NCBI GenBank assembly: GCA_963719515.1
Contig: CAVRCJ010000016.1
Span: 1 to 64,000, forward strand
From: an uncultured cyanobacterium
Lineage (GTDB): Bacteria; Cyanobacteriota; Cyanobacteriia; CAKZMO01
DNA: 64,000 nucleotides
Direction: 5' to 3'
A program made the position numbers. Below, piece after piece: positions 15,001 through 18,000 of this stretch (positions are counted from its first letter, which is position 1; each line of letters opens with the position of its first letter).

Positions 15001-18000
15001 TGGACATTGCCATTCGGGCCGCTCAGGGGCGCGGTGAGCCGCTGGATCATCTGCTGCTCTACGGCCCGCCAGGACTTGGAAAAACCACAATGGCGCTGAT
15101 CTTGGCCCAGGAAATGGGGGTAGCCTGCAAGATTACCACGGCCCCGGCTCTAGAGCGGCCTCGGGATATTGCCGGTCTCCTGGTGAACCTCAAGCCTGGA
15201 GACGTGCTGTTTATCGATGAGATTCACCGTCTGCCGCGGATGACGGAGGAAATCCTCTACCCCGCCATGGAGGACTTCCGCCTAGATATCACCATCGGCA
15301 AGGGCCAAAGCGCCCGTATCCGCAGCCTGCCGCTGCAGCGCTTTACCCTGGTGGGGGCGACGACACGGGTAGGGGCGCTCACCTCCCCCCTGCGCGATCG
15401 CTTCGGGCTGGTGCAGCGGCTGCGGTTTTACGACCTAGAAGAGCTGACCCAAATTGTGCAGCGGACGGCAACTATTCTAGAGACCCCCGTGACCGCCGAG
15501 GGCGCAGCGGAGATTGGCCGCCGAGCGCGGGGCACCCCCCGAATCGCCAACCGGCTGCTGAAGCGGGTGCGGGACTACGCCCAGGTGAAGAAATCAGGGA
15601 TGGTGACGCAGCCAGTAGCGGCGGAGGCGCTGGAGCTGTTCAACGTCGATCCGGTGGGCCTAGACTGGACCGACCGGCGCATGCTAACGGTGATGATAGA
15701 GAATTTTGGCGGCGGGCCGGTGGGCCTAGACACCCTAGCAGCAGCAACGGGAGAAGACGCCCAGACCATCGAAGAAGTCTACGAGCCTTACCTAATGCAG
15801 ATTGGCTACCTGCAGCGCACCCCGCGAGGCCGCATTGCTGCGCCTTCTGCCTGGCAGCATCTGGGCTATCGCCCGCCCGATACTCAGCTGCCTTTGCTCT
15901 CGTGAAGGGCAGGCTGTCTTAAACTGTTCTTATGAGAGTGCTACTGGTTTGGATTTTATCGCTGACCCTGCTGACGGGCTGGACGCTGCCCGCCTACAGC
16001 CTGCCCACCTACAGCCTGTCCGCCTACAGCCCGCCCGCTGACCTGCAGACGCCCCAGCAGCTCGAAGCCATCAAGGAGAAGGCGTTTGCCGCGTCGCAAG
16101 CGGGCCAGTTTGAGGCGGCAGAAGGCTACTGGTCCCAGCTTCTAGAGGCCTTTCCCACCAGCGCCCCCCTATGGAGCAACCGCGGCAACATCCGCGTCAG
16201 CCAAAATCGGCTCGAGGACGCGATCGCTGACTACGATCGCTCAGTGGAGCTGGCTCCCAATAGCCCCGATCCCTATATGAACCGGGGCGCGGCCCTAGAA
16301 GGGCTGGGCCGGTGGCAGGAGGCCATAGCCGACTACAACCAGGCGCTGCAGCTTGAGCCCGACAGCGCTGCCCTTTACAACAACCGAGGTAATGCCAAGG
16401 GCGGCCAGGGCGACTGGGCGGGGGCTATAGCCGACTATCAGCGGGCCACTGAGCTGCTGCCCAATTTTGCTTTAGCCAGGGTCAATACGGCCCTAGCGCT
16501 CTACCAAACGGGAGAAGGTGAGCAGTCGATCAGCCGGCTGCGGGGTTTGGTGCGAAAGTATCCTCGATTTGCGGACGTGCGGGCGGCGCTAACGGCGGTG
16601 CTGTGGGCGACGGGGCGGCAGGGCGAGGCGGAGAGCAACTGGTATGCCGTCATGGGGCTAGACACCCGCTACAAGGATATCGCTTGGGTGCGGCAGATTC
16701 GCCGCTGGCCCCCCGCCGTTGCCGATGCCCTCAACGAGTTTTTGACCCTCTCTTAGCGGCAGCTGGGAGGGACGGTACTAAGAGCTGCTGGAGCGCTAGA
16801 CCTGAGCTGAGGCTGTTTGGAAGAAATTTACTGTACTTTCCCAAGTCTGGGACAAATTCCCCGGATGACACGGCCGCGCCTGGAAGATTGATATGGTAGA
16901 TGCACCCTGATTAAACCCTGGCTCCGGCTAGGGTTTTTTTGTTTTCTGCCCCAGCCCCAGTCGCTTTTCAATATTGGCCCAGTAAAAGATTGCTCCTTTC
17001 CGGATGACACGGCCGCGCCTGGAAGATTGATATGGTAGATGCACCCTGATTAAACCCTGGCTCCGGCTAGGGTTTTTTTGTTTACCCCAGCCCTTTTATG
17101 GAAGACCCATCACGGCCCGTCGCCGGCCCCTGCTAATCACCGGTGCGCTGCTGTGCAAAGCCGGTCGCCTTCCACAAACAGCCCGATAAAATATTGGTCG
17201 TCGCGTGGGCCGCTAGGGGCACTAGCAAACTCCCGGTGGCGATCGCACTCCCTCCCAAAGCGGCCCCCACAACGCTGGCCCACACCACGTAAGGCCACTG
17301 CTCCCTGCCGCTAAAGTGCATTGCCCCAAAACACAGACTCGACAGCCCCACACCCACCCAGTCCAGGCCAAACGCCGGCAGCATTAGACCACGGAACAGC
17401 AGCTCTTCACTGGCTCCCGGCAGCAGCCCCAGCCAAATCAAGTCTGGCCAGATGAGGGGCCGCAGTATCATCGTCACGTAGCGTTCAGCGCTGTCTCTGT
17501 AGGCGGGCCACAGACGATAGACCCCGCCGCTGCTCAGGGTGAGGGCAACCCCAAGGGCAACCCCAAGACCTAAGTGCGACCAGCTCCAAGCAAGGGGCAG
17601 CATCACCGGAGCTCCCACCAGCCGCCAAACCTGAATCACTAGCAGCAAAATGAGTGCCGTAATCCCCATCGCTGTCAGCACTTGGACACGGGTAAGATGA
17701 ACGTCGGGGTCAGGCTGAGCGGACTGGTTCATGGGGATACGGTGGGGCTACGGTGGGGCAAGAGGCGATAGGGAACTAAGAGGCAGCGGGGCCAGAGATA
17801 GGGGAGCCAGAGGCGACAGACCGGGTCGCAGGCTCGAGAGGCTAACCCCCGCCTTGAGCGCGGCCAGCACGCCTAGCGCTTCCACATACGATTCTACCGA
17901 TATTGCCGAGAGGCCTAAGGCCGCCGGAGACACCCGCATTCGCGTCGTATTTTCTCGGACAGTGATCAGGGTAGTCTGGCGACGCTCCCTTGGGGCTAAT

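Follow-up and report, generated by a model that had tools for sequence, protein, structure and literature searches.

Our analysis of a 64,000-nt stretch of an uncultured cyanobacterial genome (positions 1–64,000 of contig CAVRCJ010000016.1, here C16, assembly GCA_963719515.1; hereafter the window) reveals a tandem pair of identical NsiR1-family sRNA genes, each preceded by its own DIF1-type promoter elements. We consider it probable that these are two independently promoted genes for trans-acting sRNAs of about 47–49 nt, read from HetZ-type promoters, and that they form part of a HetR/HetZ circuit older than heterocysts. Taken alone, the window extends by one lineage a family whose occurrence outside heterocystous strains is already on record. 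Across the class, the sRNA, its −35 and −10 elements, and a HetZ-family gene travel together, which makes the sRNA a concrete, testable output of the HetR/HetZ/PatU/PatX circuit in filaments without heterocysts.

The NsiR1 model of Rfam (RF02399; 60 positions, gathering threshold 39 bits) matches both copies over model positions 1–60 in a cmscan search of the window, with an E-value of 1.7e-07 each, and both copies are identical to the model consensus at positions 1–18 (Table 1). According to Rfam, NsiR1 has a conserved 5′ sequence that includes a small 3-bp hairpin, and a Rho-independent terminator comes next; in agreement with this description, both window copies have a terminator hairpin and a T-run. 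No other credible Rfam family is found at the locus, even at E ≤ 10. A repeat search of the window identified a direct repeat of 84 nt, with 100% identity and a spacing of 139, whose unit spans the −35 box from its second base, the sRNA, and the terminator. The tandem pair proposed for C16 by the first-pass annotation is recovered in the same places, with the same score for each copy, as an exact repeat. A reading of the RNA as a leader of the downstream gene was rejected on two grounds, the strength of the terminators and the convergent orientation of the gene that comes next.

A whole-genome search at the gathering cut returned five places, the two C16 copies included, with the coordinates and scores previously claimed for five loci sharing a seed and a terminator. 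In particular, all five have the 19-nt 5′ sequence in common, and in each a hairpin and then a T-run come after it. Among the ORFs scanned beside the other four loci, there are matches to PmbA/TldD, TatC, an S9-type peptidase, and a ferrochelatase-like protein, while three ORFs have no family assigned. None of these neighbours was recognised as hetF-like, although no search aimed at hetF was made.

Table 1. Coordinates of the NsiR1 genes, their promoter elements, neighbouring genes, and regulators (first ten rows, window positions; remaining rows, contig and position).
Feature	Position	Strand	Evidence	Remark
−35 box, copy 1	16860..16865	+	sequence	CCCGGA; differs from TCCGGA at the first base (T−35) only
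−10 element, copy 1	16881..16885	+		TGGA (16881-16884) or GGAA (16882-16885)
NsiR1-family sRNA gene, copy 1	16894-16942	+	RF02399, 52.6 bits; predicted fold	unpaired 5′ 19-mer 16894-16912; terminator hairpin 16913-16936; T-run after
−35 box, copy 2	16999..17004	+	sequence; genome-wide promoter scan	TCCGGA, the DIF1 motif
−10 element, copy 2	17020..17024	+	sequence	TGGA/GGAA
NsiR1-family sRNA gene, copy 2	17033-17081	+	RF02399, 52.6 bits	sequence identical to copy 1
Terminator hairpin, copy 2	17052-17075	+	predicted fold	
Tandem duplication	16861..17083	+	repeat search	84-nt unit, exact at 16861-16944 and 17000-17083
TPR-repeat protein	15932..16756	+	Pfam TPR families	upstream neighbour; not hetF
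CPBP/Rce1-like intramembrane protease	17133..17732	-	Pfam PF02517, 63.6 bits	downstream neighbour, convergent
NsiR1 copy	C15:121856-121909	-	RF02399, 63.5 bits	
NsiR1 copy	C11:91200-91254	-	RF02399, 61 bits	
NsiR1 copy	C11:280377-280432	+	RF02399, 48.2 bits	
Sixth, diverged NsiR1 copy	C11:155503-155557	-	RF02399, 21 bits	below cut-off
HetR	C3:551918-552364		258 bits	
HetZ	C11:335503-336693		NF037963, 638.1 bits	cut-off 550

The promoter anatomy is shared by all five genes. In the window, both TGGA and GGAA of copy 1 fit an xGnA element at −13/−12 from the first model base, and the −10 element of copy 2 lies 15–16 nt after the −35 box and 8–9 nt ahead of the first model base. The copy at C11:280377 has TCCGGA as its upstream box, the copies at C11:91200-91254 and C15:121856-121909 have TCCTGA, and an xGnA element stands at about −12, downstream of the −35 box, in the copies of this genome. 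The boxes that had been claimed at about −35 (TCCGGA twice, CCCGGA once, TCCTGA twice) are all in the sequence as claimed. DIF1-type promoters have been attributed, by a 2026 paper, to the sigma factor HetZ; that paper gives the consensus TCCGGA-N16–17-TGnA-N7–9-T and reports that T−35, G−32, A−30, and T−13, the last in part, can be replaced (PMC13342950). The CCCGGA and TCCTGA variants found here are changed at such replaceable positions only. With TGGA as the −10 element, the spacer is 15 nt and the distance to the first model base 9 nt; with GGAA (G at T−13), the values are 16 nt and 8 nt, against a published spacer of 16–17 nt and a published distance of 7–9 nt.

The hexamer TCCGGA, a palindrome, has 698 sites in the 5.28-Mb genome (1396 strand-counts), and a TCCGGA box within a 3-nt register is expected by chance about 4e-4 times per locus. 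The −35 boxes of the window stand in the register of the Nostocales copies to within 1 nt. In a survey of 208 NsiR1 copies, taken from 123 public loci, 206 have TCCGGA at −36 to −34 with no more than one mismatch (80/81 from Nostocales, 82/82 from other named groups, 44/45 unlabelled), and xGnA is present at −12/−13 in 205; in a shifted control register, the corresponding counts are 0 and 14 of 208.

The genome, rated 100% complete, encodes both HetR and HetZ, as had been stated. It also encodes a HetZ-related paralogue (NF037964, 612.1 bits, cut-off 612), a putative PatU-like ORF directly 3′ of hetZ (no more than a lead, at an Atlas score of 0.97), and two putative PatX-like ORFs of 70 aa that contain HRGSGR and are each preceded, at a distance of about 60 nt, by a DIF1-type box. 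Among the 24 small RG[ST]GR ORFs of the genome, these two are the only ones with such a box; neither has an NCBIfam match. No DIF1-type box is present within 1.3 kb upstream of hetR, and a genome-wide search for a HetR-recognition-type inverted repeat gave no strict match and five loose ones, so the link from HetR to hetZ is only a putative one in this genome. Scans against NCBIfam found nothing relevant among the ORFs at C11:270–330 kb, nothing for a 127-aa ORF that follows a strict TCCGGA-N17-TGTA box (C11:468019), and no match for a 491-aa ORF following a third HetZ paralogue, for which Pfam gave only a weak MshEN match; neither HetZ nor the PatU-like ORF has a sequence match among solved structures. 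The claim that nitrogenase genes are missing holds for nifDK-type genes: two Pfam Oxidored_nitro matches and one strong Fer4_NifH match, all on C5, have the pattern of ChlB, ChlN, and ChlL.

NsiR1 is widespread across the class. Of 151 sampled genomes, 90 have RF02399 over the cut-off; among the 30 families listed, 20 have it in all or nearly all of their sampled genomes, and it is also present in all 16 other genomes searched in the window's family. Records with the exact 18-mer carry the labels Leptolyngbyaceae, Elainellaceae, Microcoleus, Spirulina, Geitlerinema, Chamaesiphon, and others, and the cultured Leptolyngbya sp. PCC 6406 has the 18-mer too. NsiR1 and a HetZ-family gene (match at E ≤ 1e-100) occur together in 90 genomes, NsiR1 alone in 1 (a genome 67% complete), the HetZ-family gene alone in 1, and neither in 59, in a sample where families are mostly all-or-none for both, so that the 151 genomes stand for a small number of independent events; a shared 'filamentous' gene set could be all that lies behind the coupling. 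The window locus is an ordinary member of this widespread family and not a special case, because NsiR1 with its promoter is common in filamentous cyanobacteria.

The first-pass annotation had proposed that the NsiR1/DIF1 module predates heterocysts and may serve a nitrogen-stress or cell-fate programme. The proposal is supported in part: the family, complete with its promoter, extends far beyond Nostocales, a distribution most simply explained if NsiR1 arose earlier than heterocysts. As a discovery it is not supported, because homologues outside heterocystous strains are in print. A supplementary table of 2016 lists them in 38 of 89 strains, 27 of these heterocystous (PMC4734099, supplementary file 6), and an NsiR1-like RNA was discussed in 2021 for Limnospira, which has neither heterocysts nor N2 fixation (PMC8400943). 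A DIF1 promoter has likewise been published for a nif-less, non-heterocystous Leptolyngbya (PMC11298460), and the idea that HetR, PatX, HetZ, and PatU are older than heterocysts is also in print (PMC7761841, PMC12669612).

Under the preferred reading, an ECF-like sigma factor, HetZ or its HetZ-related paralogue, would read each gene from the TCCGGA-like −35 box and the xGnA element at about −12, and the transcript would end at the intrinsic terminator. The invariant, unpaired 5′ 19 nt would be the working part, pairing with 5′ regions of mRNAs by analogy with Nostoc. NsiR1 would then be the post-transcriptional arm of a HetR/HetZ circuit that filamentous cyanobacteria may have in common and that may predate heterocysts. 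Membership of the family, the anatomy of the promoters, the regulators encoded in the genome, and the coupling across the class are results of the analysis, whereas HetZ dependence, expression, targets, and physiological role are our inferences; the four sequencing runs listed for this stretch are DNA runs from a single study.

The strongest competing explanation accepts the genes as true NsiR1 homologues and detaches them from HetZ: TCCGGA and xGnA would serve another factor, such as NtcA-linked nitrogen control or another alternative sigma, and the product would be an sRNA of the general stress response with no part in cell fate. In line with this, NsiR1 is present in two Chamaesiphon-labelled genomes and in genome G023, which have no HetR, and PatX is largely HetR-independent in mutants of Leptolyngbya BL0902, a result reported in a 2024 paper that calls it a mystery what hetR and patX do in species without heterocysts (PMC11298460). 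The circuit may accordingly be wired differently outside Nostocales. We nevertheless regard independence from HetZ as unlikely, since nearly all copies have both elements in register and in agreement with the sigma-HetZ consensus, and NsiR1 tracks a HetZ-family gene even where HetR is missing, with a single NsiR1-only genome in the sample.

Candidate targets were sought with the 19-nt seed. Its top five sites fall on the antisense strands of the NsiR1 genes themselves, and a 15-nt perfect site at C11:155539(+) is not a target, being the antisense strand of the diverged sixth copy. The best non-self site, upstream of a CAP/RTX gene (−28.2 kcal/mol), was dropped; it scores −15.6 to −18.9 in four same-genus genomes. 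The best candidate target in this genome, as predicted from sequence, is the 5′ UTR of a Peptidase_M15_3 cell-wall peptidase gene on C3, with a predicted duplex of −27.3 kcal/mol against a background of −14.9 ± 2.5 (1% quantile −21.4 kcal/mol) and a predicted site at about −60, away from the ribosome-binding site. This target, also favoured by the first-pass annotation, is upheld in part: the predicted site is kept in the orthologous UTRs of two same-genus genomes (−25.0 and −23.4 kcal/mol) and is absent at the 14 orthologous and paralogous loci that were scored in the family's four other genera (−9.9 to −19.7). Because its conservation is at genus level only, the M15_3 site is insufficient as an explanation for a class-wide invariant 18-mer. 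In the earlier reading's scan, the hetP-like gene, hetR, and hetZ had no good predicted seed site.

An RNA working mainly by protein binding, and not by mRNA pairing, would account for 18 nt that are invariant across the class. A Nostoc CLIP-seq study describes NsiR1 as enriched with PatR, an RNA-binding protein reported to be widely conserved in cyanobacteria (PMC11797042), and the non-self seed duplexes range continuously from −28 to −24.5, with no site standing out. Against this stand the within-genus conservation of the predicted M15_3 site and the pairing of Nostoc NsiR1 with the mRNAs of hetF and the hetP-like alr3234 (PMC9045159). Pairing and protein binding are, moreover, not exclusive, and we judge protein binding as the main mode of action to be distinctly improbable.

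Two further explanations are very improbable. The copies could be look-alikes, a short conserved word beside a terminator or repeat relics never made as stable RNA, given a 60-position model that draws much of its score from a generic terminator; the diverged sixth copy, at 21 bits, does show that decay of NsiR1 copies occurs. Yet the five copies score 48.2–63.5 bits against the curated cut-off, each keeps the 18 consensus-identical nucleotides, a promoter, and a terminator, the terminator helix has compensatory changes in 9/9 pairs across 52 sequences, and copies are kept in all 16 other genomes of the family that were searched. Horizontal acquisition from heterocystous cyanobacteria, which would deprive the locus of any bearing on ancestry, is scarcely credible, even though sRNA genes are small and multi-copy and one early-branching Leptolyngbya has been inferred to have received hetZ and patU3 by such transfer (PMC12669612), because the family and most of the families listed are (nearly) uniformly positive, linkers and terminators are lineage-specific, and the co-occurring HetZ-family genes are treated as mostly vertical (PMC12669612).

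A bolder form of the preferred reading, which we put forward tentatively and hold to be possible rather than likely, is that heterocysts are not what NsiR1 is for. Among the RNAs made under HetZ-family sigmas it would be the most conserved, its ancestral task being to switch on in selected cells and retune cell-wall or division functions there, for example at filament breakage sites (here through the M15 peptidase), and heterocyst commitment would have co-opted it later. On this bolder form, a HetZ-type promoter with NsiR1 should occur in essentially every cyanobacterium with HetZ or its older paralogue, including nif-less thin filaments and the HetR-less Chamaesiphon-labelled genomes.

The window genes share with NsiR1 of Nostoc/Anabaena sp. 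PCC 7120 positions 1–18, small size, an intrinsic terminator, a DIF1 promoter of their own, and tandem copies. The Nostoc genes form an array of 12 upstream of hetF, whereas two tandem and three dispersed copies are found here, the tandem pair lying between the TPR protein and the CPBP protease; the linker is shorter than that of the RF02399 model (49 nt matched versus 60 positions), and the host, unlike Nostoc, has no nifDK-type genes. The expression of Nostoc NsiR1, which is induced by nitrogen step-down, HetR-dependent, and confined to developing heterocysts, cannot be assumed for this genome, and neither can its targets hetF and alr3234. Another comparison is with RNA162 of Limnospira indica PCC 8005 and the homologues of 11 non-heterocystous strains in the 2016 list, where an NsiR1-family RNA is found in filamentous strains without heterocysts; for Limnospira, the authors draw attention to hetR-patS in the genome as well (PMC8400943). 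Those reports contain neither a promoter analysis nor a link to HetZ, and the present case differs in lineage and in having five to six copies.

The promoters resemble the sigma-HetZ promoters of patS, patX, hetR, patU, and sigC, with −35 TCCGGA and −10 TGnA about 8 nt before the start, and a box of the same kind stands before the two PatX-like ORFs of this genome. The named sigma-HetZ promoters serve protein-coding genes in a heterocyst former, whereas those described here serve an sRNA, with GGAA/TGGA as −10 and a spacer of 15–16 nt; the main text of PMC13342950 contains 0 occurrences of NsiR1. Finally, NsiR1 is comparable to Yfr1 and Yfr2, which are also short, terminator-ended RNAs; they have a single-stranded motif that does not vary, are often multi-copy, and are conserved in many orders (PMC6596454, PMC4734099). 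Neither Yfr1 nor Yfr2 has an Rfam match at the window locus, even at E ≤ 10, and the distributions differ: Yfr1 is described as conserved throughout cyanobacteria, whereas NsiR1 is confined, with 1 exception in 151, to genomes with a HetZ-family gene.

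Our covariance-model search of the whole genome gives five matches to RF02399 (Rfam NsiR1, an sRNA known from heterocyst development in Nostoc), reproducing the places and scores claimed in the first-pass annotation. A cmscan of the entire window at Rfam gathering thresholds gives three matches in all, two of which are NsiR1 copies (Table), and a permissive threshold reveals no credible match to another Rfam family at the NsiR1 locus. Both window copies are contained in a perfect 84-nt direct repeat with a spacing of 139, the unit of which runs from the second base of the -35 box to just beyond the terminator, bearing out the proposed tandem pair. 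The shared 5' seed and terminator are likewise seen in 5/5 copies, each comprising the same 19 nt at the 5' end, then a linker that is short and variable, a GC-rich hairpin, and a T-run. All five loci thus genuinely belong to this sRNA family. The Nostoc transcript begins at model position 3 (PMC4734099, supplementary table), and the RNA in this genome is therefore probably ~47 nt long. A sixth, diverged NsiR1-like gene outside the window retains a 14-nt seed core, a hairpin, and eight consecutive T, has a TATTAT box and no DIF1 box (TCCGGA at -35) upstream, and could be a decaying copy or a copy with a different promoter.

Coordinates of features in the window (contig C16) and on other contigs of its genome
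Feature	Contig	Position	Strand	Details
NsiR1 copy 1	C16	16894-16942	+	RF02399, 52.6 bits (gathering 39), E 1.7e-07, model positions 1-60
NsiR1 copy 2	C16	17033-17081	+	RF02399, 52.6 bits (gathering 39), E 1.7e-07, model positions 1-60
Direct repeat	C16	16861-16944, 17000-17083		Holds both window copies
IsrR	C16	51960-52137	+	RF01419, antisense RNA to isiA; 84.7 bits (cut-off 52), full length
TCCGGA-N17-AGTA box	C16	60600-60626	+	In gap between two minus-strand histidine-kinase genes; directed antisense into 3' end of 588-aa kinase gene
Sixth NsiR1-like gene	C11	155503-155557	-	RF02399, 21 bits, E 0.1, below cut-off
HetZ	C11	335503-336693	-	NF037963, 638.1 bits (cut-off 550)
Strict DIF1-type box	C11	305462	-	125 nt before 399-aa ORF with HTH_25 domain and weak RodZ-like match
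Strict DIF1-type box	C11	468019	+	141 nt before 127-aa ORF, no family match
Strict DIF1-type box	C6	57087	-	Just downstream of third HetZ paralogue, before 491-aa ORF
70-aa ORF	C6	19559-19768	-	Hydrophobic N-terminus, HRGSGR near C-terminus
70-aa ORF	C6	394261-394470	+	Hydrophobic N-terminus, HRGSGR near C-terminus

The spread of RF02399 outside Nostocales, flagged earlier as possibly known, proves wide in the class and partly in print. RF02399 exceeds the cut-off in 32/41 genomes (40 relatives plus the window's own), comprising all 16 other genomes of the family and 15/24 genomes drawn one per other family. An even sample of the class has it in 91/151 genomes (90 over the cut-off), mostly all-or-none by family. 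An exact 18-mer scan, with one genome per species, gives at least 123 loci; record titles among the matches listed include Nostoc, Calothrix, and Tolypothrix, and also Leptolyngbyaceae, Elainellaceae, Oculatellaceae, Phormidesmis, Microcoleus, Symploca, Coleofasciculaceae, Spirulina, Geitlerinema, Oscillatoria, Crinalium, Chamaesiphon, and others. Sorted by the genera in their titles, the 123 listed loci comprise 25 from Nostocales, 65 with other names, and 33 unlabelled or doubtful. Copy number and tandem layout vary widely (for example at G001:C40, G004:C208, G007:C245, and G152:C38 of the comparison genomes): tandem pairs occur in same-genus genomes, G007 has five consecutive copies, G152 has seven or more, and some non-Nostocales records have runs of 4-5 (five in a Symploca record, L036).

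The presence of NsiR1 coincides with that of the HetZ family. Of the 151 sampled genomes, 91 give a HetZ-family match, defined as NF037963 at E<=1e-100, a threshold that also picks up the HetZ-related paralogue; 90 have both NsiR1 and HetZ, one has NsiR1 only (G062, 67% complete), one has HetZ only (G070, 96% complete), and 59 have neither, counts beneath which lie few independent gains or losses. In the 24-genome one-per-family set, HetR is present in 13 genomes, all with NsiR1, while HetZ-family matches of at least 480 bits are present in precisely the 15 NsiR1 genomes, including the two that lack HetR. Two genomes titled Chamaesiphon (loci L047 and L031) have the NsiR1 18-mer behind a TCCCGA/TGGA promoter, and a search for HetR in both found none; their only HetZ-family match is at the level of the HetZ-related paralogue (479-480 bits), and NsiR1 therefore follows this paralogue even without HetR. 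On these counts the tightest partner of NsiR1 is the HetZ family rather than HetR or heterocysts, with the caveat that NsiR1 and HetZ are both clade-wide traits.

The promoters of the NsiR1 genes resemble HetZ promoters. [quoted passage not shown] Exactly as first annotated, TCCGGA precedes the copy at 17033 (16999-17004) and that at C11:280377, CCCGGA the copy at 16894, and TCCTGA the remaining two; both variants are altered solely at positions published there as replaceable. TCCGGA occurs at 698 sites in 5.28 Mb, and its placement in a fixed 3-nt register is therefore not chance. In window copy 2, 15 nt separate TCCGGA from TGGA, with the first model base 9 nt after TGGA, so that a strict TGnA reading leaves the spacer one base short of the consensus; alternatively, GGAA one base on gives a 16-nt spacer and 8 nt to the first model base. 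Counting the box at 60600-60626, the genome has 30 of this kind outside its ORFs, so this one may be a chance occurrence.

The same promoter recurs across the class. The 123 listed loci hold 210 copies, 208 of them with 60 nt of upstream sequence, although copies from tandem arrays and related genomes are not independent. Among these listed copies, exact TCCGGA is positioned at -36..-34 in 135/208 (Nostocales 56/81, other named 44/82, unlabelled 35/45) and nowhere else in the upstream 60 nt. With at most one mismatch it is present in 80/81, 82/82, and 44/45, respectively, and xGnA at -12/-13 in 80/81, 80/82, and 45/45, versus 0/208 and 14/208 in a shifted control register. The -10 element among the matches listed is typically AGAA after 17 nt in Nostocales and mostly AGnA after 16-17 nt outside. 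The terminator stem has compensatory changes in 9/9 pairs among 52 sequences (four from the window's genome and 48 from named non-Nostocales loci), a set in which 18-mer invariance is a consequence of how the loci were selected.

The genome has the regulators HetR and HetZ and, as first claimed, no nitrogenase genes. Pfam Oxidored_nitro matches two genes and Fer4_NifH matches one strongly, all on C5 and two adjacent; by their domains, this is the pattern of light-independent protochlorophyllide reductase, beyond which nothing in Pfam points to NifD/K/E/N; the genome is rated 100% complete. HetR (258 bits) and HetZ are both found, as annotated, together with a HetZ-related paralogue on C6 (NF037964, 612.1 bits, cut-off 612) and a third, distant paralogue (67.6 bits). 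Immediately downstream of hetZ lies a 290-aa ORF for which Pfam, NCBIfam, and PDB give no match; the protein-atlas clusters closest to it carry the name PatU (score 0.97), which is a lead only to a PatU-like protein. Of 24 small RG[ST]GR ORFs, only the two 70-aa ORFs on C6 have a DIF1-type box upstream (~60 nt before the start); neither adjoins hetR or matches NCBIfam. Their architecture is presumably that of PatX. With the PatX description in PMC7761841, they are read as PatX-like.

We scanned both strands of the whole genome for targets of the 19-nt seed. The top sites are the antisense strands of the five NsiR1 genes; the sites after them range continuously between -28.2 and -24.5 kcal/mol, and none stands apart. 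A 15-nt perfect seed site was rejected as the antisense strand of the sixth copy, and the control, the top-scoring site other than the NsiR1 genes themselves (-28.2, ahead of a CAP/RTX gene), falls to between -15.6 and -18.9 in four genomes of the genus. The proposed target, the 5' UTR of a Peptidase_M15_3 gene (domain 75.6 bits), has a predicted site 61-40 nt before the ATG (duplex -27.3 kcal/mol), compared with -14.9 +/- 2.5 kcal/mol for 400 random 5' regions (1% quantile -21.4). Orthologues in two same-genus genomes gave -25.0 and -23.4 kcal/mol, with no BLAST alignment upstream of the ATG; of the other two genomes, one had no match and one a partial, paralogue-like match. The proposed candidate is real, with low energies kept in these two orthologues. 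The 14 orthologue or paralogue loci scored in the four other genera of the family reach background only (-9.9 to -19.7). The UTR is therefore a reasonable predicted target at the genus level, and cannot suffice to explain a seed invariant across the class. Protein binding may add constraint on the seed, since PMC11797042 reports Nostoc NsiR1 as enriched with the RNA-binding protein PatR.

The likely mechanism would be HetZ-family-dependent transcription of a seed-pairing sRNA. What deserves follow-up is how RNA, promoter, and sigma factor are coupled across the class. In the papers examined, we found no mention of HetZ-type NsiR1 promoters outside Nostocales or of NsiR1 tracking HetZ; NsiR1 is absent from the main text of PMC13342950. 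The proposal that NsiR1/DIF1 extends outside Nostocales was right in direction, but the trait is family-wide, partly published, and no peculiarity of this genome. Supplementary file 6 of PMC4734099 (2016) lists 38 NsiR1 homologues among 89 genomes, 27 heterocystous; the 11 non-heterocystous strains, counted from its table columns, include Trichodesmium, Arthrospira PCC 8005, several Oscillatoria, Microcoleus FGP-2, Spirulina, Crinalium, Geitlerinema, and two Leptolyngbya. In Limnospira, a non-heterocystous, non-fixing genus, an NsiR1-like 57-nt RNA is discussed and linked to hetR-patS by a 2021 paper (PMC8400943). PMC11298460 (2024) describes a Leptolyngbya that forms no heterocysts, lacks nif genes, and has hetR, hetZ-patU, and a patX preceded by a predicted DIF1 promoter; it terms the function of these genes there "a mystery". 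PMC7377430 counts hetZ, patU, and hetR as core genes in filamentous species, and regulators of the hetR/hetZ/patU/patX type are reported to be older than heterocysts, with a suggested role in placing filament breakage (PMC7761841, PMC12669612).
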